Positions 21,147-64,000 of a stretch of DNA of 64,000 bases are shown here, one piece after another. Every line of letters starts with the position of its first letter. Positions within the stretch are counted from its first letter, which is position 1. A model generated the notes under the pieces. That model saw nothing but the letters and a program-made list of their open reading frames with translations, was not told the DNA's origin and searched no databases. Source of the DNA: a virus; IMG/VR virus record IMGVR_UViG_3300024503_000332. The stretch is one strand, 5' to 3'. Position numbers and translations under genes: made by a program.

Positions 21147-21386
21147 ATGTTAAAGCTATTAGCCAAACTTTTTGGAGCCAAGAATACAGCACCAGCTGAG
21201 CCAGAGGCACCCTATAAAGTAGAAGCACCTGCTCCAGCACCAACGCCGGTCGCAGAACAGGCAGCTCAGGCTGTGGTAGAAAGCATTGCACCTGCCAAAA
21301 AGAAAGCACCTGCCAAAAAGACTGGTGCTCCTAAGCAAGGTGCTGCTAAAAAACCACGTAAGCCTAAATCAAAGCCCCAAGCGTAA
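21147..21386 (+). CDS. small Lys/Pro/Ala-rich protein
   Basis: AGGAG SD, TAAATA upstream, PAKK repeats. Confidence 0.7.
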   Translation: MLKLLAKLFGAKNTAPAEPEAPYKVEAPAPAPTPVAEQAAQAVVESIAPAKKKAPAKKTGAPKQGAAKKPRKPKSKPQA

Positions 21387-22394
21387 GGCTTGCTGATGTA
21401 GAGCAAAACTAGCTAGATTTTTAGCTTTGCTCTCACACATAATATCAAAGCTGTCTCGGAAACTCAGAGCCCATTCATTAACTGCTGTATTCCAGTAGAA
21501 GTTAGAGTGAGCTCTGAGTTTCGCTTTTTTGTAACCTTCGGAAAGTAGTTTGTGATAGTCGGGCAATGTTTGATCGCAATGATCTACGAGAACATCTTCA
21601 CGACTAATAGAATAATGCATGACAGGCCTAACACCCCGCCAGCTCTCAACCACCATTTGAACACGCGAGTCCATGGGTTGTATATATTCCCCGCTATGTA
21701 CCCAATGGTGATGTACATCCATAACCACAGGAACGATATCGCTAATACTAAGGCAAGTTTCAAGTCCATGCGTCATTTCCTCATTTTCGATAGTGATAGT
21801 GTTACGTGCTTCGGGTGTTAAGCGGCCCAATACAGCACGTATTCCATCGGGGCCTCGTCGACCCGCGATATGAACGTTGATTTTAAAGTCCTGAAACGTT
21901 TGGCCAAATCCCATCCAGCGAGCCATGTCCACATGATATTCAAACTCCTCTATAGATCGGCTGACAATATCATCGTTATCACTTGCCAGCACAGTAAACT
22001 GACCAGGATGAAAACTGAGCCTAACACGATTCTTGCGAGCCAAATCACCGACGGCTCTGAAATGTCTTTCGGCGTAATCTCGCACATCGGGAGTCCGCCA
22101 AAACCAAGACCAGCTTGGCTCAGTGTACACAGGAAGTATATCGCTGCTGAGTCGTACCATTCTAAGATCTTCATCAAGTGCTCCTACACGTTCTACAAGA
22201 AGACGTGTGGACTCAATGTTTTGTTTCATGAGAGACCATAGTTTATCTACAGCCACGTCCTTGGTTTGTCTATTTAACCAAGCTACGGTAGTAGTTCCGG
22301 TGTTGTAGATCTTGCACTCATCTTTAGGCTTAATGCCATCTACCTGATGAGGGTGATCGATCCATTTGCAAGCGAAGCCAATACGTTTAGTCAT
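21369..22394 (-). CDS. uvsE: UV damage endonuclease
   Basis: RIGFACK, RLSSD, RLSFHPGQF, ITIENEE, DVHHH, HS, DIMCESKAKN. Start moved to ATG 22394 because the upstream extension is the promoter. Confidence 0.9.
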   Translation of the reverse strand: MTKRIGFACKWIDHPHQVDGIKPKDECKIYNTGTTTVAWLNRQTKDVAVDKLWSLMKQNIESTRLLVERVGALDEDLRMVRLSSDILPVYTEPSWSWFWRTPDVRDYAERHFRAVGDLARKNRVRLSFHPGQFTVLASDNDDIVSRSIEEFEYHVDMARWMGFGQTFQDFKINVHIAGRRGPDGIRAVLGRLTPEARNTITIENEEMTHGLETCLSISDIVPVVMDVHHHWVHSGEYIQPMDSRVQMVVESWRGVRPVMHYSISREDVLVDHCDQTLPDYHKLLSEGYKKAKLRAHSNFYWNTAVNEWALSFRDSFDIMCESKAKNLASFALHQQALRLGL

Positions 22395-22400
22395 AGTATT

Positions 22401-22430
22401 ATTATACAATAAATCAACGCCAGTTGTCAA
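22401..22430 (-). promoter_or_regulatory. sigma70-type promoter for uvsE (probably leaderless mRNA)
   Basis: TTGACA-18nt-TATAAT with TG in the spacer; ATG 6 nt after the -10 box. Confidence 0.75.
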
Positions 22431-54524: not shown

Positions 54525-55127
54525 TCACATCGTAGGACCGTTTCCGTTCCTGAACCCTACTTCACCGCCCTCTGCTTTGATACGTGCTATAACGTCTTCA
54601 AACAAGATAGGAGCAAAGTCCGGTGTTTGTTCTACGCAAACACAGTGATAACGAGTATCGATTTCATCGCTGTACAAAACTTCTCCTGTACGAGCATCAA
54701 CACCACGAGCCTTTTTTACACGACCTGCGTGTAAGTGACCGTGTATGTTTACACCAAATCGACCTAACGATGCTTCGTGTACTGGAATATGGCTTAATAT
54801 CATTCCGTTCATAACGTGGTAAGCACGTAACTCTCGGAAGTATTGTCCGTATTCTGTATCACGAAAAATATCGTGATTACCACGGATTAACACCTTGTCA
54901 CCGTTCAATCTGCGTAACGTTGACAAGGCCTTGCGGTTGATAACAACATCTCCCAAATGGTAGACCTTATCCGTGGGCTTAACTCTTTCGTTCCAAGCCT
55001 TAACCATAGCTTCGTCCATTTCTGCAGGATCGGTCCACGGTCTCAACTTAGAGCCATCTTCTCGAGTGAAACGGCACACGCCAGCGTGGCCAAAGTGCGT
55101 ATCACTGACTAAAAACACGCTAGGCAT
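54525..55127 (-). CDS. calcineurin-like metallophosphoesterase
   Basis: SDTHFGH, HLGD, GNHD, SH, HGHLH. Confidence 0.9.
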   Translation of the reverse strand: MPSVFLVSDTHFGHAGVCRFTREDGSKLRPWTDPAEMDEAMVKAWNERVKPTDKVYHLGDVVINRKALSTLRRLNGDKVLIRGNHDIFRDTEYGQYFRELRAYHVMNGMILSHIPVHEASLGRFGVNIHGHLHAGRVKKARGVDARTGEVLYSDEIDTRYHCVCVEQTPDFAPILFEDVIARIKAEGGEVGFRNGNGPTM

Positions 55128-56457: not shown

Positions 56458-57135
56458 TTATCTCCAGAGTAGATCTAGGTTGCCTTTGAGGACCTGAGAA
56501 CATTTAGCTCTCTTGCCCGTCAAGTGATCTTGGACATTGTCATCTTGGAAACGATATGTGCGGATTTTGTCACCTCGCATACCAGAACCAACCTGCTGGC
56601 GTCTATCACTTGCTATGCTATTATTATACGATCTTTTCAGCTCGGAGTCAATGCGTTGTTGTAGACTAGCCACAGCTTCTGCTAGGCTATTTTGGCGACT
56701 ACGACATTCTGCTTTGGATATAATACCTGTAGGAAGGTGTGTGATACGGCAGCTATTTTGGTGCTTGTTCCGATATTGCCCACCGGCACCTGTTCCGCTA
56801 TACCATTCAATCTTTAGATCATTTTGGTTGATAGCTACGGATTCGATTTCCGTAGTGCGGTCTATGACGGCAACGGTTACGGTGCTGGTATGGACACGAC
56901 CTTTTCGTTCGGTCGGAGGCACTCGCTGGATTCTATGACCACCGGGCTCGTTGTCTAAGCCGGATAGATCTGCGCCCTCTACAAGTATTGAACACTCGCC
57001 AGGACGTACATCTATCAGGCGAGCTGTTCAGCCCAGTTTCATTCCTAGTTTTGTGTATGCCTGCGCGAGATCGCTGACAAACAGTTTACTATCTTCTCCG
57101 CCCTCTGCGGCACGGATTTCAATCACTCGTTTCAT
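56458..57135 (-). CDS. class-I peptide chain release factor (RF1-type, lacking domain 1) with in-frame UGA at codon 36
   Basis: AGGAG SD and ATGA overlap at 57135; MKRVIEIRAAEGGEDSKLF...KLG*TARLI...GGHRIQRVPPTERKGRVHTST...GAGGQYRNK...RSRQNS...IRTYRF, all in one frame. Confidence 0.9.
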
Positions 57136-57350
57136 TGCCGTCTCCTTTTCATCCATGTGTAATCTGTACCGTCCGGTAGTTTACCGTCCTTGACAGAATC
57201 TGTTCCAAATACACCAACCAGTTCGAAATCGTCGCCGTTTATTTTTACAAATAAGCCTATTTCTTTAGATCTTGTTAGTGCCAGTGATAGTGTTTCTACT
57301 TCTTCCTCGCAGGCTCTACCCCCTGCGTCATTCCATTTTACTTTATACAT
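57132..57350 (-). CDS. hypothetical protein (probably leaderless)
   Basis: Start MYKVKW at 57350, 6 nt after TATAAT. Confidence 0.7.
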   Translation of the reverse strand: MYKVKWNDAGGRACEEEVETLSLALTRSKEIGLFVKINGDDFELVGVFGTDSVKDGKLPDGTDYTWMKRRRQ

Positions 57351-57389: not shown

Positions 57390-57593
57390 TTACCAGTCTT
57401 CGATTCCGCTGATTTCTACAGAAAACTCTCCACGTATACCTTCGATATTAGTATTGAGTTTTAATGTAGTAATGTCACCGATTCCAGATGAGTTATCTTG
57501 TTCTATAGAGAAACTATTAACTTCTGGAAACTTGTCTAAGATTTTTGAAACTTGTTCTAGATCTTTCCTGTTTAGATATACAGTTTTGGTCAT
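57390..57593 (-). CDS. hypothetical protein
   Basis: 67 aa; ATGA overlap. Confidence 0.65.
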   Translation of the reverse strand: MTKTVYLNRKDLEQVSKILDKFPEVNSFSIEQDNSSGIGDITTLKLNTNIEGIRGEFSVEISGIEDW

Positions 57594-58177
57594 ATATCAC
57601 CTTCTCTTTCTCTACGCTCTCTACGCTCTGCAGCCAGTGTAAAGACCTTTTCGTTGTCGTCGGTCCAATCTACAGTCTTAGGAAGAACGATCCCAAACTC
57701 GGTCGTGTAACCGTTGATGGTGTGGGGCTCGTTCTCGTCGTAACTCCATCCTAGCTTCTTCATCATCTTGTGCTTGACTAAGAGATTAGGTGAGCGAAAA
57801 GCTTCAGTATCACGGAATCCCATCATAACACCGACTTCACAGACAGCACCTGAGCGACAAACACCTGCTACACAGTGAACAACAACATTCGTACGATTTT
57901 CAAATGCACGTTGTAGAAGTTCTACCAGTTGATCGGCCTGTGCCTGTGTGATAGCGAACTCGCTCATGTCGACCATTTTACCGTCGCCGAAGTTAGTCAT
58001 TCCATCTTCCTCGATGTCAAGGAACTCGAACTGATGCACTTCTCTGAACTGGTAGCTAGGAGTAGGAAACTCCATAGCAGGATCGACGATCTGAATCAGC
58101 ATAGAGTTAATACCCGCATCGATGTGATGACCTTTCTTAACATCGCTGAGAGACACATTTTGGATCCACGGATTCAT
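57590..58177 (-). CDS. protein tyrosine/dual-specificity phosphatase-like protein
   Basis: FLD loop; VHCVAGVCRSGAV (CX5R). Confidence 0.8.
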   Translation of the reverse strand: MNPWIQNVSLSDVKKGHHIDAGINSMLIQIVDPAMEFPTPSYQFREVHQFEFLDIEEDGMTNFGDGKMVDMSEFAITQAQADQLVELLQRAFENRTNVVVHCVAGVCRSGAVCEVGVMMGFRDTEAFRSPNLLVKHKMMKKLGWSYDENEPHTINGYTTEFGIVLPKTVDWTDDNEKVFTLAAERRERREREGDI

Positions 58178-58628: not shown

Positions 58629-58871
58629 TCATTTGCCGTAAAGCCTCTTCATACGCTCGCTGTGTTCTTGACAGTAGATACACATAGTAACTCCTGGCAC
58701 AGCGACCTGTCTTTCTTTGGGGATAGCTTCCCCACATTCTTCACACTCTTCCAAACTCGGACCCTTGGGCATTTTGGCACGATGTTCGGCCAATGCTTTT
58801 GCGTTTAGTTGTAGAGCAAGGATCTGAGCGATCTCAGCTTCTTCCTCGTTGTTGTATTCAAAGTCATTCAT
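58629..58871 (-). CDS. DksA/TraR C4-type zinc finger protein
   Basis: CEECGEAIPKERQVAVPGVTMCIYCQ. Confidence 0.85.
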   Translation of the reverse strand: MNDFEYNNEEEAEIAQILALQLNAKALAEHRAKMPKGPSLEECEECGEAIPKERQVAVPGVTMCIYCQEHSERMKRLYGK

Positions 58872-58938: not shown

Positions 58939-59015
58939 TGGTGCCCTAGGCGGGATTCGAACCCGCAAAACCTACGACCTCAACGTAGTGCGTATACCGA
59001 TTCCGCCACCAGGGC
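58939..59015 (-). tRNA. tRNA-Leu(GAG), short variable loop
   Basis: Cloverleaf; CTACG-TTGAGGT-CGTAG; CCA end. Confidence 0.85.
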
Positions 59016-59016
59016 T

Positions 59017-59091
59017 TGGTGCGCGATGAGAGATTCGAACTCCCGACATCCGTCGAGTCAGGACGGAACTCTACCACTGAGTTAATCGCGC
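59017..59091 (-). tRNA. tRNA-Val(GAC)
   Basis: CCGTC-CTGACTC-GACGG; CCA end. Confidence 0.85.
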
Positions 59092-59101
59092 TGAAGATTT
59101 T

Positions 59102-59177
59102 TGGTGCTGGTGAGTGGGATTGAACCACCGACCCCTTCCTTACCAAGGAAGTGCAACTACCACTGTGCTACACCAGC
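59102..59177 (-). tRNA. tRNA-Thr(GGT)
   Basis: CTTCC-TTGGTAA-GGAAG; CCA end. Confidence 0.9.
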
Positions 59178-59294
59178 CTTATATGAGGATCATGAGCCCC
59201 GCCACGCCTGCTCACAACCGATGACCTGCGGACTTGCTCGACGCTGGTCCCCGCACTTCTTTTACATGGAGGTGCCTTCCATGTTCTATTTATT

Positions 59295-59377
59295 TGGTGC
59301 GAGTGGTGGGACTCGAACCCACAAGCCGAAGCGGGAGATTTTAAGTCTCCTGAGTTTACCAATTTCTCCACACTCGC
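59295..59377 (-). tRNA. tRNA-Leu(TAA)
   Basis: GGAGA-CTTAAAA-TCTCC; variable arm; CCA end. Confidence 0.92.
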
Positions 59378-59382
59378 ATGTA

Positions 59383-59460
59383 TGGCCTGCCCGGAGGGAT
59401 TCGAACCCCCGACCCACAGCTTAGAAGGCTGTTGCTCTAATCCGGCTGAGCTACGGGCAG
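59383..59460 (-). tRNA. tRNA-Arg(TCT)
   Basis: ACAGC-CTTCTAA-GCTGT; CCA end. Confidence 0.92.
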
Positions 59461-59467
59461 AAAAAGT

Positions 59468-59543
59468 TGGAGCGGGCGACGAGGTTCGAACTCGCGACAT
59501 TTAGCTTGGAAGGCTAATGCTCTACCAACTGAGCTACACCCGC
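59468..59543 (-). tRNA. tRNA-Gly(TCC)
   Basis: TTAGC-CTTCCAA-GCTAA; U73-CCA. Confidence 0.92.
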
Positions 59544-59544
59544 A

Positions 59545-60249
59545 TTATAACCATTTACGATTCGATAACATCCTTTTTGCCATTTCATACCTGTAACGCA
59601 AACTCTTACGCGGTACGAATGTCTTAGAAGCTAGACAAGCTTCAGCGACGTGTTGTAGTTCCTTACTGTAGTCTATGTGTTTAAGCACAGCCTTTTTATC
59701 AGTTTTAAAACGAACAGCGAACATGGGTTCACCTCTTTTAAGTTCGATAGGCTTAGACAGGTCTTGGATTTCAAAAGTAAAATCCACCGGTCTAATCCAA
59801 CGATGTATATTCATCGTTCCTGGAATCATTTTTATATTCCTTGTCAAACTATTAGAGATCAACGGTACATCAAAACTCTCTATCTCCACATCTTGATCTG
59901 CTACAAACAGATAGTTGATGCGTAGTGTGATACAGGCACTAACTAACTTGCCATCTTTAAGAATAGGAAATCTTGGATAAAATGTTTCATCATACCAATC
60001 TTGTCCTAGCCTGTCAGTGACATATCTGTCATTGTCTGCATCATAGTTTATTATAACATCATAAGGGCAGCGGACAACAAAAATATTGGAAAAATAGTCC
60101 GAAACAGCCGGACATTTGGTATAATCCGCAGTGCCTCTTTCTTTTAATATCAGTGGCCAAATAGGTTCGGGTTCGTAGAAAACGATATCCTTCCATTGGC
60201 TGGATTGTTGATATTTTGGATCGTTGTAGATAGTCCAACCGATATTCAT
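59545..60249 (-). CDS. hypothetical protein (possible dUTPase-like beta fold)
   Basis: KCPAV..F.VRCPYD, IPG...I..W.RP, LKRGEPM. Confidence 0.7.
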   Translation of the reverse strand: MNIGWTIYNDPKYQQSSQWKDIVFYEPEPIWPLILKERGTADYTKCPAVSDYFSNIFVVRCPYDVIINYDADNDRYVTDRLGQDWYDETFYPRFPILKDGKLVSACITLRINYLFVADQDVEIESFDVPLISNSLTRNIKMIPGTMNIHRWIRPVDFTFEIQDLSKPIELKRGEPMFAVRFKTDKKAVLKHIDYSKELQHVAEACLASKTFVPRKSLRYRYEMAKRMLSNRKWL

Positions 60250-60815
60250 ACTTGTATGCCAATATCAGCAGCTAATATAAATCTGTACTTGTTGCTTTGT
60301 ACGATCCCGGGGCGGTGCCAAGTACGACTAGGATATATTAGCCAGTTAAAATCAGTGGGTCTCACAAAAAACTTTGGATCATTTTGAGGGCCATTTGGAG
60401 CCATTTCTGTTCCGCAGTAATCTCTATCTTTAACATCATCAGGGATGCGTAGATAGAATATTCCACTGAGCATTTCTATGTCATCTCGTTTCTGATGATG
60501 ATGCCAAAGATTTTCACGATCTTCTGCACCATCGAGATTTGTCATAAAACTCCAAGCCATCATGTCTGATACTTTAACTTCTCGTCCAACATACATAAAG
60601 ACGCTAAACAAAAAACTCATACGGTATTTTAACCATATAGGCTCAGGTCTAGCAAAAATATTTTCTTTAGTTTGAAACTTTGGACTATTGGTAAAATAGT
60701 TTCCAGATGCGATAATGCCTTCTATGACCTTGCAGGCTTCGTCATTATCTTCTTGTGTGATAATGCTACTAAAATCAAACTTCCTACACATTGGGTCTTG
60801 ATCTATAACCTGCAT
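60246..60815 (-). CDS. putative 2OG-Fe(II) oxygenase
   Basis: WHHH..SGIFYL..IYPS..H..RFILA; start MQVIDQ at 60815 (the ORF-track extension lies inside a tRNA). Confidence 0.7.
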   Translation of the reverse strand: MQVIDQDPMCRKFDFSSIITQEDNDEACKVIEGIIASGNYFTNSPKFQTKENIFARPEPIWLKYRMSFLFSVFMYVGREVKVSDMMAWSFMTNLDGAEDRENLWHHHQKRDDIEMLSGIFYLRIPDDVKDRDYCGTEMAPNGPQNDPKFFVRPTDFNWLIYPSRTWHRPGIVQSNKYRFILAADIGIQV

Positions 60816-60827
60816 AACGTCCTCTAT

Positions 60828-60903
<76 letters not shown>

Positions 60904-60921
60904 ATATTTCTACTTATCTTA

Positions 60922-60997
60922 TGGCCTCTCTACCATGACTCGAACATGGATCTTGACCTTAGGAGTGTCGTGTTCTATCCAGTTGAACTATAGAGAG
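60922..60997 (-). tRNA. tRNA-Arg(CCT), weak anticodon stem
   Basis: Loop CTCCTAA, A20, G73-CCA; two anticodon-stem mismatches. Confidence 0.8.
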
Positions 60998-61001
60998 AAG
61001 T

Positions 61002-61079
61002 TGGTCGGAGTAGTAGGATTCGAACCTACGACCCTCTGCTCCCAAAGCAGATGCGCTAGCCAGACTGCGCTATACTCCG
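61002..61079 (-). tRNA. tRNA-Pro(TGG)
   Basis: TCTGC-TTTGGGA-GCAGA; C1-G72; CCA end. Confidence 0.92.
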
Positions 61080-61083
61080 ATAA

Positions 61084-61157
61084 TGGTTGCGGGTGACAGA
61101 GTCGAACTGCCAACTAGAGCTTATGAGACTCTCGAGATACCGTTTCTCTAACCCGCT
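61084..61157 (-). tRNA. tRNA-Met(CAT), initiator-like 1-72 mismatch
   Basis: AGAGT-CTCATAA-GCTCT; A1xA72; CCA end. Confidence 0.8.
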
Positions 61158-61162
61158 ATAAT

Positions 61163-61368
61163 AAGTGTCTAGCTACTTCCACCACAGAAGCCCTAGACTG
61201 AGTTGTTCCCCTGTCCACACGTTTTATTGTTCTGGAAGGACTGTAGTTGTCCACCTACGGTTGTTTTCGTTTCCCCAAAACGAGGGCGTAAGGTCAAGTC
61301 CGTATGTACCTAGCCGTTTCTTTGGTGATGGCCCCACCCACTTTATCACGGAAAAGTGTAACCGGGTT
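61163..61368 (-). ncRNA. putative structured non-coding RNA
   Basis: About 200 nt with no credible ORF; several hairpins (CACTTT/AAAGTG, TCGTTT/AAACGA, GTCTAG/CTAGAC). Confidence 0.5.
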
Positions 61369-61369
61369 G

Positions 61370-61942
61370 TTAGATCAATCCTTCTGCTTGTAGCGTTGCC
61401 ACTACTTCATCGCTGAGAGGAATCTCAGTCTTGATGTTGAGCTCAAGGATCTCATCATTGATCTTTTGCTTCTGCTTCTTGAGATTTAAGATCTCAGCCT
61501 TAGCTTGATCAATCTGCTCCTGTGTTACCACAGAAGTATTGACGGTGTCACTGTAGCCGTAGAGTCGGCTGCGTGTTTCGCCTTTGTCGTTCTTGATCTT
61601 TTCTAGCTTGCCCTTAATCACATCGATCTCTACCATCTTGGTCAGGCCAGCGATTTCCTCCAACTGACCAATGCGCTTGTCTAGGAAAGCCGCAGTGGCC
61701 AACTTAAGATCAACACCAGAGTTGTTGTTGGCAGCGCCAACAAGTCCGCGAATGTTGTAGAGAGCCAGTGTCAACTTTTGACGACGAGCATCATTGGCAA
61801 ACAGCTTGTCGTTATGTGCCTTGAGCTCTGCTTCCACATTCTGGAACTCGTTGAGTTCGATGCTGGTCTCCATTCTAATGCTCTTGACAGCATCATTGAT
61901 TGCGTTTTGTACAGCGTTTGCCTTACGAAGTGTGATGTTCAT
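61370..61942 (-). CDS. coiled-coil protein, DIP1984-like
   Basis: MNITLRKA...LKKQKQKINDEILELNIKTEI; family resemblance judged by eye. Confidence 0.7.
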   Translation of the reverse strand: MNITLRKANAVQNAINDAVKSIRMETSIELNEFQNVEAELKAHNDKLFANDARRQKLTLALYNIRGLVGAANNNSGVDLKLATAAFLDKRIGQLEEIAGLTKMVEIDVIKGKLEKIKNDKGETRSRLYGYSDTVNTSVVTQEQIDQAKAEILNLKKQKQKINDEILELNIKTEIPLSDEVVATLQAEGLI

Positions 61943-61964
61943 TTCTATGTCTCTCTTTTAAAAT

Positions 61965-62207
61965 AACGGGTTGGTAAAAGGTCAAGTAATAGACCGGACA
62001 ACTTGCAAATAGCAACTTTCAACATGCAGGCTACAGAGGCCTGAATATTTCCGATCAGCAACAAACAGGTATAAGTGGATACCGGATCACTCAAGCACGG
62101 ACAGTTTTCAAGACTGTTTGCCAGTATTGGAGCTTCGGCATGAGGCCGAAACAGTGTCTATCCTCGTCTACCCTTTACCTCGCCGGTCACGTAGTTTCCT
62201 ACGCAAC
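61965..62207 (-). ncRNA. large structured 5' leader/ncRNA
   Basis: Long-range helices GGTAAAGGGT/ACCTTTTACC and ATAGAC/GTCTAT enclose several hairpins; 5' hairpin capped by GAAA. Confidence 0.6.
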
Positions 62208-62213
62208 AAACTT

Positions 62214-62242
62214 ATTATTGCATTATTGTTTCGTTGTGTCAA
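62214..62242 (-). promoter_or_regulatory. sigma70-type promoter
   Basis: TTGACA-17nt-AATAAT; predicted start near 62207. Confidence 0.55.
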
Positions 62243-62855
62243 CCTTACGATCAACCAATCTGCAGTCCCAAGCTAAACTTACTCGATGTCCAGTGCCATT
62301 CCACGGATATACACAATGCGGAATGTTACTAGGGAATACCAGCATCTTAGCCTTCTCGGGCATAAATCTCCACGAGTCTGTAAAGATAAGATGTGCGATA
62401 TTCTTTGACACAGGCAGTTTAAACTCGATGTTTGCATCTGATACTTTGCTAGCCTCATCTAACTTAGGAACATCGATATAGATGTTTCCGCTGATGTTAG
62501 CTTCATGACTATGAAGTACCTGATAGTCTCCAGGACCTTGTTTGATGGTCCAAGCACTGATTAGTTCTGGTGCCACTTGACTAAGGTCAACCATAGGGTT
62601 TTGCTGTTGTATAGCTTTAAGATATTCTTCTACGGATTTCTCTACGAAATCTTTAAGAACGTTGTAGTCTAGTCCAAAATCATTAGGAGCGATTTGGATT
62701 TGCTGTCCTCCCCTAATACTGATAGCCGGATTTCCTTCATCATTTAGCTCATTGTGTGTATGTGCTAGTTTAACGATTTTTTCCAACTCATCGAAGACGT
62801 CCGCTGGGACATCATCTAGTGCTATCACTGTAGGGTTCAAGAACGCAAACTTCAT
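62223..62855 (-). CDS. putative 2OG-Fe(II) oxygenase (TIGR02466-like)
   Basis: SAW..Q.PGDYQ.LHSH..ISGNIY..VFPS..PHCVYP..RVSLAW. Confidence 0.8.
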   Translation of the reverse strand: MKFAFLNPTVIALDDVPADVFDELEKIVKLAHTHNELNDEGNPAISIRGGQQIQIAPNDFGLDYNVLKDFVEKSVEEYLKAIQQQNPMVDLSQVAPELISAWTIKQGPGDYQVLHSHEANISGNIYIDVPKLDEASKVSDANIEFKLPVSKNIAHLIFTDSWRFMPEKAKMLVFPSNIPHCVYPWNGTGHRVSLAWDCRLVDRKVDTTKQ

Positions 62856-62872
62856 ATCTATCCTCAATAAAA

Positions 62873-62948
62873 TGGTGCTGCTTGTCGGATTCGAACTGAC
62901 GACCTACTGCTTACAAGGCAGTTGCTCTACCGGCTGAGCTAAAGCAGC
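62873..62948 (-). tRNA. tRNA-Thr(TGT)
   Basis: ACTGC-CTTGTAA-GCAGT; CCA end. Confidence 0.92.
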
Positions 62949-62990
62949 GTATTTTTACTTAGTAAGAAAATAAAATTTCTTATACAAAGT

Positions 62991-63067
62991 TGGCTCCCCG
63001 AGCTGGGCTCGAACCAGCGACACCTTGATTAACAGTCAAGTGCTTCTACCAACTGAGCTATCGGGGA
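62991..63067 (-). tRNA. tRNA-Asn(GTT)
   Basis: CTTGA-CTGTTAA-TCAAG; G73-CCA. Confidence 0.92.
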
Positions 63068-63072
63068 ATAAA

Positions 63073-63249
63073 TCAATCTTCTTTTTTACTGCGATCTTTT
63101 TTAGACGAGTGTTTAACAGCAATCGAAGCAGTCCACTCTGCATCAATCATAGCACGTTTCCATGCATTACGTTGTTCTTTAGTTTTAAAGTGTCCTAGAC
63201 CTAACATACGTTTAGTGGTCTTAGATAGTCTGAATGCTGATGTTGTCAT
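63073..63249 (-). CDS. 58-aa basic hypothetical protein (not in ORF track)
   Basis: MTTSAFRLSKTTKRMLGLGHFKTKEQRNAWKRAMIDAE...; AGGA SD. Confidence 0.65.
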   Translation of the reverse strand: MTTSAFRLSKTTKRMLGLGHFKTKEQRNAWKRAMIDAEWTASIAVKHSSKKDRSKKED

Positions 63250-63264
63250 AATGATCCTAGTAAA

Positions 63265-63340
63265 TGGTGGAGGATATCGGACTCGAACCGATCACCCCTA
63301 GCTTGCAAAGCTAGTGCTCTCCCAGATGAGCTAATCCCCC
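63265..63340 (-). tRNA. tRNA-Ala(TGC)
   Basis: CTAGC-TTTGCAA-GCTAG; G3-U70; CCA end. Confidence 0.92.
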
Positions 63341-63344
63341 AATA

Positions 63345-63439
63345 TGGCGGAGCGTATTAGATTCGAACTAATGATACAGGTTTTTGCCCGTATGCCTTCT
63401 TAGCAGGAAGGTGCCTTCGACCAACTCGGCCAACGCTCC
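63345..63439 (-). tRNA. tRNA-Ser(GCT)
   Basis: CCTTC-CTGCTAA-GAAGG; long variable arm; G73-CCA. Confidence 0.92.
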
Positions 63440-63447
63440 GTAAAACT

Positions 63448-63523
63448 TGGTGGGTCCTGACAGTCTCGAACTGCCGACCTACACGGTGTAAACGTGCCGC
63501 TCTACCAACTGAGCTAAGGACCC
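63448..63523 (-). tRNA. tRNA-Val(TAC)
   Basis: GCACG-TTTACAC-CGTGT; CCA end. Confidence 0.92.
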
Positions 63524-63589
63524 AAATGTCTTTTCTGAAACACACTATGCCACGCTCTGAACCTGGACTCTTAGTAATGTGTTTTAGAA

Positions 63590-64000
63590 AAGTGCTAACG
63601 CTGAGATTACACGTTAGCCATAAGCACCTCTAGCATTATAGTCCGCCTTGCGAGCAAACCTTCTCTAGACATCCACATAAGCCCTTGCGGTACCTATGTC
63701 TGCTTACAGCATCGCCGTTTTTAAAGCCAGGCAGTAGGCTTGTCGTCACCAGCTATTCTGCGCCTTCTTTTCCGTTGATCTTGCGAACCATTAAGCCTTG
63801 CGAGCTACGAAACTTCTAGCACAAACAGATTTCACCTTGCGAGTTACGTCTGACTTGATTCACTTGCGTGTCAAGCATTAGATGCTTTTCACTGATGACC
63901 GAGGCAGTCTTTGCGTTTTTGTTTACATAGAAGGAGTTGAACCTTCAGCAGTTTCTTTAACAGAGAAATACTCTACCATTGAGTTATATGCAACCTACAA
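63590..64000 (-). ncRNA. GOLLD-like large ncRNA, 3' portion (5' end probably outside window)
   Basis: No credible ORF; six CGCAAG (GCAA tetraloop) hairpin caps; terminal GCTAACG-TGTAATCTCAG-CGTTAGC hairpin; within a tRNA array. Confidence 0.6.
63922..63993 (-). tRNA. tRNA-Asn(GTT)-like cloverleaf without CCA, within or next to the large ncRNA
   Basis: TTGCATA/TATGTAA acceptor; TTTCT-CTGTTAA-AGAAA; GAAGG-TTCAACT-CCTTC; A73 and no CCA. Confidence 0.7.

Follow-up and report, generated by a model that had tools for sequence, protein, structure and literature searches.

The synthesis of a release factor (RF) can be made to depend on the recoding of a stop codon within its own gene. In bacterial prfB, which encodes the class-I factor RF2, an early in-frame UGA is bypassed by a programmed +1 frameshift at a Shine-Dalgarno (SD)-like element followed by CUU UGA C, in competition with termination by RF2 itself, and output rises when RF2 activity is low. 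In phage Qbeta, the UGA of the coat gene is read as Trp at low frequency by the normal tRNA-Trp, which yields the C-terminally extended minor coat protein A1 and, to our knowledge, needs no conserved 3' hairpin. The class-I release factor of Mimivirus and Megavirus, giant viruses of eukaryotes, is of the eukaryotic/archaeal eRF1 type, requires one read-through and one frameshift for its synthesis, and is the only recoded gene in the genome (PMC3521657). The Jade phages, which use code 4, carry an RF1 gene in standard code, with no stop inside it, within a 'code change module', together with a tRNA(UCA), a tryptophanyl-tRNA synthetase (TrpRS) and many late genes with in-frame TGA (bioRxiv 10.1101/2021.08.26.457843). 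Viral read-through stimulators, such as that of Moloney murine leukemia virus (MoMLV) gag-pol and other extended stem-loops, combine a stop codon, mostly a UAG or UGA between two protein modules, with a spacer of ~8 nt and a 3' structure, and act on eukaryotic ribosomes and eRF1 (PMC13517186), while PrfH (RFH) is a domain-1-less RF2 paralogue that retains GGQ and is paired with RtcB (PMC1586002). Here, we describe a gene for a short RF1-type release factor in a 64,000-nt stretch of viral DNA (IMG/VR record IMGVR_UViG_3300024503_000332; hereafter, the window), which is interrupted by an in-frame UGA at codon 36 (UGA36), is followed within its coding sequence by a conserved RNA hairpin, and is probably expressed through programmed UGA-to-Trp read-through.

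Like prfB, the gene encodes a class-I RF and has an in-frame UGA near its start, and passage over this UGA would compete with RF2 termination, but the context is GGY UGA R, with neither a slippery CUU nor a conserved SD-like element, homology continues in the zero frame, and the UGA falls in domain 2, whereas the prfB site falls in domain 1. Moreover, its product is RF1-type and would be unable to read its own UGA, which would make the regulation cross-regulatory instead of autoregulatory. It shares with the Mimivirus and Megavirus factor the condition of a virus-encoded termination factor that needs stop recoding, but is of the bacterial RF1 type, resides in a phage, and has one UGA and a hairpin. 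As in the Jade phages, a phage RF1-type factor is tied to UGA read as Trp; however, the window and its relatives use the standard code, no tRNA(UCA) was found in the complete relatives, and the in-frame TGA is confined to the RF gene. With the MoMLV-type signals it has in common the stop codon, an 8-nt spacer and a long conserved structure in the downstream coding sequence, although the system is bacterial, the signal lies within a single folded domain, and the near-cognate amino acid would also be the ancestral residue. Unlike in Qbeta, the whole functional protein would depend on read-through, and unlike PrfH, with which it shares a class-I RF architecture without domain 1 but with GGQ, it keeps the PxT-type motif of RF1 and has no rtcB-like partner among its neighbours, which are small unknown open reading frames (ORFs), a phosphatase-like gene and a DksA/TraR zinc-finger gene. 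Recoding-gated release factor synthesis is thus known (prfB, Mimivirus eRF1), but, as far as our literature searches show, the phage RF1-type case is apparently undescribed: no account of phage RF1-type genes with a UGA inside them came up, and the paper on huge phages mentions RF1 and RF2 merely as present.

The RF gene lies on the minus strand of the window (56458..57135) and comprises 225 codons, UGA36 included, plus a TAA stop (56460-56458). Its ATG start codon (57135-57133) is preceded at a distance of 6 nt by the SD sequence AAGGAG (57142..57147), which recurs as (A)AGGAG with equal spacing in nearly all relatives, and is overlapped as ATGA by the TGA stop (57132..57134) of the upstream 85-aa gene, an instance of ordinary TGA stop function in the same operon. 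UGA36 (57028..57030, in the context GGC TGA A) is the sole in-frame stop within the frame. On its 5' side, codons 1-35 (57031..57135) encode an EGGED tip that, by alignment with RF1, is the counterpart of the tip of the U1-reading helix, and on its 3' side lie the PPT tripeptide (56911..56919), which is the PxT 'anticodon' motif of RF1 and is embedded in HRIQRVPPTE, and the GGQ motif for peptidyl-tRNA hydrolysis (56776..56784). An earlier note on this DNA had described this frame with its SD, ATGA overlap, single TGA and intact RF motifs, all of which we find at these coordinates, and had remarked that the ORF track showed only the last 154 aa; indeed, the standard ORF list holds only 56458..56922, with a GTG start, for the RF gene.

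Read with the TGA as a residue, the gene matches the Pfam families PCRF (positions 103-194 of 194, E 3e-21, that is, only the C-terminal half of the domain) and RF-1 (E 6e-20). Among NCBIfam models, prfA scores highest (199 bits), followed by prfB (120) and prfH (38). The prfA match spans profile positions 107-334 of 347, and domain 1 is therefore absent; at 199 bits it does not reach the equivalog cut-offs of 400 and 423 bits, which makes the protein RF1-type but not a canonical prfA orthologue, and the prfH score is likewise below the cut-off of that model (TIGR03072, 166.65 bits), which sets the protein apart from PrfH. In phmmer searches against RF1 structures it aligns over residues 2-222 (E 3e-42), with RF1 of Thermotoga maritima and of E. 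coli as the best matches (E about 1e-42 to 1e-39). The segment HRIQRVPPTE..GRVHTS, which makes up the RF1-type recognition region, is intact, with the PPT, Gln and Thr determinants of RF1, and both HRIQRVPPTERKGRVHTS and GAGGQ are present. Codon 36 aligns without a gap to the Trp that is conserved at this position in RF1 and RF2 (GW in T. maritima and RRW in E. coli RF1). Both the assignment of the factor to the PxT-type RF1 group and that of codon 36 to the usual Trp position, as made in the earlier note, are thereby borne out, and the factor is predicted to read UAA and UAG only. Domain 1 is dispensable for stop-codon recognition and peptide release, its role being mainly to couple the factor to RF3, and truncated RF1 is functional in vivo (PMC1586002); because it lacks this domain, the factor should act independently of RF3.

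The internal UGA is invariant. In a scan of IMG/VR we collected 34 full-length relatives at 61-88% identity, all with TGA at codon 36, which reduce to 28 distinct sequences (TGA in 28/28), and a metagenome scan combined with database look-ups added 81 further loci (72 distinct genes, 60-88% identity), again with TGA in 81/81; TGG was seen at this codon in none of them. Around this fixed triplet, the 28 distinct sequences have GGC or GGT at codon 35 and six different forms of codon 37, and their other Trp codons (111 and 224) are TGG. Because codons 1-35 show a proportion of synonymous differences (pS) of 0.72, a proportion of nonsynonymous differences (pN) of 0.18 and a median ratio of nonsynonymous to synonymous substitution rates (dN/dS) of 0.10 in the 28 sequences, the segment 5' of UGA36 is, to judge by its substitution pattern, translated and constrained as protein. 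Protein-coding conservation continues in the same frame on both flanks of the UGA, where synonymous divergence is saturated and purifying selection acts on either side. This conservation, far beyond what chance would produce, indicates that UGA36 is selected and not an accident. The two outcomes that would have told against the earlier note, homologues with TGG and a lack of conservation in codons 1-35, are thus both contradicted by the comparison.

Beginning 8 nt after UGA36, the RNA can fold into an extended hairpin (56960..57019, minus strand), in which a middle stem lies inside a 10-bp outer stem formed by 57019-57010 and 56969-56960 (alignment columns 27-36 with 77-86). In the window it has a minimum free energy of -33.5 kcal/mol (z-score -3.6), and minimum-energy folds give a long hairpin after the UGA in 9 of 11 divergent representatives. 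By pair counting, the outer stem is 84% paired over 28 sequences, with compensatory changes in 6 pairs; over 87 distinct sequences, 85% of cells are paired and 8 of the 10 pairs carry compensatory changes, while none of 500 shuffles is as good and slid controls are 18-44% paired. The middle stem covaries too. Its pair 39:74, for example, which matches a synonymous wobble position in a Val codon with position 2 of an Ala/Val/Lys codon, occurs as U-A, A-U and G-C; pairs 38:75, 41:72 and 44:69 also switch type. The apical part is variable in sequence and poorly paired, and no Rfam family matches the hairpin region. Other candidate structures were discarded, namely a short local hairpin (CUCGCC/GGCGAG) and an RNAalifold consensus around the UGA, which were weak or without covariation, and a small hairpin enclosing the UGA itself, which is only 75% paired with little covariation. 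A dip in synonymous variability 3' of the UGA is confounded by amino-acid variability, and we do not count it as evidence. The extended hairpin, which the earlier note had missed, is more likely to be the recoding signal than the UGA-A context that the note had invoked.

The window and its relatives use the standard genetic code. A greedy selection of ORFs in the window yields 78 that together account for 96% of its length, 27 of which have TGA as their stop, and coding coverage is 0.947 under code 11 as against 0.940 under code 4. The same check was made on the complete genomes of two relatives, the 364-kb G001 and the 223-kb G002, which has terminal repeats. Both are 93-96% coding under the standard code; TGA makes up 35% and TAG 8% of their stops, with UAA at 57% in the phage genes. 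Genome-wide recoding of TGA or TAG was accordingly rejected, as neither coding density nor gene length improves under alternative codes and TGA is a common stop. Taking TAA read-through candidates as the null for TGA and TAG, we found 19 TGA candidates in G001 and 13 in G002, with TGA and TAG each yielding fewer than TAA. The search for conserved stops relied on a coding-frame filter, six-frame high-scoring segment pairs being too noisy (off-frame and antisense translations of related DNA also align), and the RF gene, which is the only gene with an RF domain in each of G001 and G002, is also the only one in these two genomes and the window whose homology runs across a conserved in-frame TGA. 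ARAGORN detected neither a tRNA(UCA) nor a tRNA-Sec in the two complete relatives. The claim that recoding is not genome-wide, so far based on neighbouring genes, therefore holds across the window and the two complete relatives. A second read-through candidate in the window, the TGA of a 353-aa gene (22430..21369, minus strand) with an open 70-codon extension to 21159 that aligns with G001 across the stop, was rejected, since the extension shows no protein-level conservation, its G001 counterpart contains another TGA as well as indels, and most differences are at codon position 1.

The 32 and 40 genes that ARAGORN predicts in G001 and G002 comprise, among others, tRNA-Trp(CCA), a tRNA(CUA) that resembles an amber suppressor and a transfer-messenger RNA (tmRNA). 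The visible part of the tRNA array of the window (58939-63993) contains no Trp or suppressor tRNA. We located phage tRNA-Trp(CCA) genes at G001:237314-237387 (minus), G002:216458-216531, L021:3854-3927, L186:3817-3893 and, in G003, at position 8999-9088 of L187+L188. Four of these five have U11-A24, the Hirsh suppressor state; the G002 gene has in addition a C27.U43 mismatch, which leaves a 4-bp anticodon stem, and the G003 gene has C9 and an unusually long variable arm (90 nt). For the A24, C27.U43 and C9 states of tRNA-Trp, increased decoding of UGA has been reported in E. coli (PMC13092985).

In-frame UGAs are also found in the short RF genes of other huge phages. All four that were scanned with NCBIfam (LR745206, LR756501, LR756511 and LR745208) are RF1-type and lack domain 1. 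In phages of >600 kb, the PPT-type RF1 genes of LR745206, LR756502, LR756504 and LR756501 contain one or two in-frame TGAs, at approximate positions 715 and 739 in L092 (LR745206.1), 730 in L093 (LR756502.1), 724 in L094 (LR756504.1), and 697 and 736 in L096 (LR756501.1), and one of these TGAs (SI*L/SI*I) is common to three of the genes. The 49-kb regions around the RF gene in LR756501 and LR745206 look standard-code, and single-sequence folds after the TGAs of these AT-rich phages have z-scores of -0.6 to -2.0. The short RF gene of LR756511 has no internal stop. A different arrangement is found in the 485-kb huge phage LR745208.1, whose RF1-type gene (L095:589-1243) contains a frameshift site (L095:690-705) with the sequence AGG GGU CUU UGA CCU, after which homology resumes in the +1 frame; this prfB-type cassette is placed one codon after the position homologous to UGA36, and a 4-residue deletion in the recognition loop leaves the protein without the PxT segment. 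Judged from gene structure, phage RF1-type genes thus appear repeatedly to depend on bypass of a UGA, by three mechanistically different routes. The IMG/VR loci L038-L060 were rejected as comparable short RF1 genes, as they match only the GGQ domain and no PCRF homology was found in them; the motif SGTGAGGQYRNKHQN is common to these loci and domain 3 of the window factor.

We think it probable that programmed read-through of UGA as Trp makes synthesis of the RF1-type factor conditional on weak UGA termination. At UGA36, RF2 would compete with the near-cognate tRNA-Trp(CCA), be it that of the host or the phage's own, and with the UGA in the A site the hairpin would stand at the mRNA entrance and increase read-through. 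Insertion of Trp would restore the ancestral residue at codon 36; without read-through, RF2 would terminate there and a 35-aa peptide would be released. The yield of the factor would be set by this competition and would in effect report the efficiency of UGA termination, so that a shortage of UGA termination capacity or a plentiful supply of phage tRNA-Trp would lead to synthesis of the factor, which could then take over UAA and UAG and leave RF2 free for UGA. No frameshift would be involved, in line with the in-frame gate proposed in the earlier note, since the alignment with homologues runs on unbroken and sets a single residue opposite UGA36. That the phage would in this way sense and rebalance RF2-dependent termination is plausible and fits the recurring UGA devices in phage short RF1 genes. 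Going further, and more tentatively, short phage RF1-type factors may represent a repeatedly evolved, cross-regulatory sensor of termination capacity, triggered when UGA termination by RF2 falters or when a phage tRNA-Trp prone to misread UGA accumulates; depending on the lineage, the UGA would be passed by hairpin-stimulated Trp read-through, through the use of more than one UGA, or by a +1 shift of the prfB kind. On this wider reading, the circuit would be the first RF2-to-RF1 feedback loop found in nature, and its hairpin the first RNA structure in a bacterial system to stimulate UGA-to-Trp read-through.

Several points weigh against this reading. We infer both the read-through and the Trp at residue 36 from sequence, and found no established bacterial precedent for hairpin-stimulated UGA-to-Trp read-through. 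The leaky UGA-A context put forward in the earlier note is weak support, as 32% of the TGA codons that serve as normal stops in these genomes likewise have A as the next base, so that the +4 base is not distinctive, and two divergent relatives (L029 and L030) form different hairpins. The window phage's own tRNA-Trp, if it has one, falls outside the window, and the features of the phage tRNA-Trp genes are not diagnostic, given that A24 appears to be common in natural bacterial tRNA-Trp. The relatives also encode an amber-suppressor tRNA(CUA) alongside a factor predicted to read UAG. Finally, the proposed feedback would be indirect, as a factor of the RF1 type has no means of relieving UGA termination itself.

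Among the alternatives, the idea of a sequencing error, a private nonsense mutation or a decaying pseudogene is refuted by conservation: about 100 distinct sequences, drawn from many samples, all have this TGA, synonymous sites around it have diverged to saturation, and both flanks are under purifying selection. A fixed throttle, in which UGA and hairpin merely hold a potentially toxic extra release factor at constant low read-through without sensing anything, would have the same anatomy as a read-through gate, and the double recoding of the Mimivirus release factor has been proposed to buffer strongly against its over-expression (PMC3521657). We nonetheless regard it as unlikely: a weak SD or start codon would achieve this more cheaply, yet nearly all relatives have a strong AAGGAG, and the repeated use of UGA-dependent devices by separate phage lineages, including an RF2-dependent prfB-type site, suggests that the input is the efficiency of UGA termination. 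Another possibility, to which we give a small chance, is that a dedicated UGA-reading tRNA, encoded by the host or by the phage and missed by ARAGORN, or a timed code switch would let the factor appear after the tRNA is expressed. Phages with code-change modules comprising suppressor tRNA, TrpRS and RF1 do exist (Borges preprint), the RF gene adjoins large tRNA arrays, and the array of the relative L029 contains an odd, unassigned tRNA-like gene. An efficient suppressor would, however, be costly to phages in which ~35% of genes end in TGA, many of them in ATGA overlaps, the two complete relatives have no tRNA(UCA), and a conserved in-frame TGA was found in no other gene of the window, G001 or G002.

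The remaining two readings are both very improbable. A UGA with a conserved hairpin close downstream is the layout of the selenocysteine insertion sequence (SECIS), in which the two are known to occur together in bacteria, and the hairpin described here is real, conserved and close to the UGA, so that residue 36 could in principle be selenocysteine. Yet position 36 aligns with Trp, not Cys, in RF1/RF2 homologues, the apex of the hairpin is variable and poorly paired, Rfam gives no match to the region, and no tRNA-Sec was found in the complete relatives. It is similarly hard to believe that translation simply stops at UGA36 and that the 35-aa peptide and a re-initiated C-terminal fragment act separately or assemble non-covalently. 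Gene callers do predict ORFs of 154-189 aa 3' of the UGA, but no conserved start codon or SD follows it, codons 37-45 being variable (ACT, ACA, GCT, AAG and others; GTA, GTT and GTG), and codons 1-35 hold the tip of the U1-reading helix, which belongs to the same domain fold as the downstream part.

The same gene is systematically misrepresented in public catalogues, where it is either truncated (154-189 aa) or given as 'full-length' with Trp36 through code 4 (P0001-P0035 and others; loci L100-L105). The protein database holds seemingly intact versions of 222-231 aa with Trp36, and four of these, traced to six places, match only when TGA is read as Trp ('with_TGA=W' in 6/6). They are code-4 gene calls on short contigs, and both kinds of entry are an annotation artefact, an error worth fixing in virome catalogues, as gene callers either truncate the RF gene or mistranslate it under code 4. 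The device itself is found in about 100 distinct sequences, comes with a covarying RNA element and has other forms in the largest known phages. If the proposed read-through gate is correct, jumbo phages would monitor and tune host translation termination, and the element would provide a small UGA read-through module of natural origin that works in bacteria and could serve synthetic biology and genetic code expansion.

The genomic setting of the RF gene is recurrent, in that the gene lies next to or within a large tRNA array in all relatives. In the window, this is an array of 16 genes (58939..63993, minus strand) upstream of the RF gene, interspersed with small ORFs and continuing beyond the window end; a megablast search of the RF locus against the phage collection gave no match. 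The unassignable tRNA-like gene in the array of L029 (L029:1137-1225) is 89 nt long and is given a two-base 'anticodon' (ca) by ARAGORN. The tRNAs with CUA anticodon, labelled 'Pyl' by ARAGORN, are encoded at G001:339529-339603 and G002:130-204, and we found no conserved in-frame TAG in these two genomes. Their tmRNA genes (G001:298488-298862, minus, and G002:113486-113987) encode the tags ANDNVYALAA and ANDSKFALAA and carry an asterisk in the ARAGORN output, which we take to denote permuted (two-piece) tmRNAs. Between the array and the RF gene of the window, on the minus strand, are genes for a DksA/TraR-type C4 zinc-finger protein (58629-58871, E 1e-11) and for a protein with weak matches to dual-specificity phosphatases (57590-58177), and downstream of the RF gene a calcineurin-like phosphoesterase is encoded at 54525-55127.

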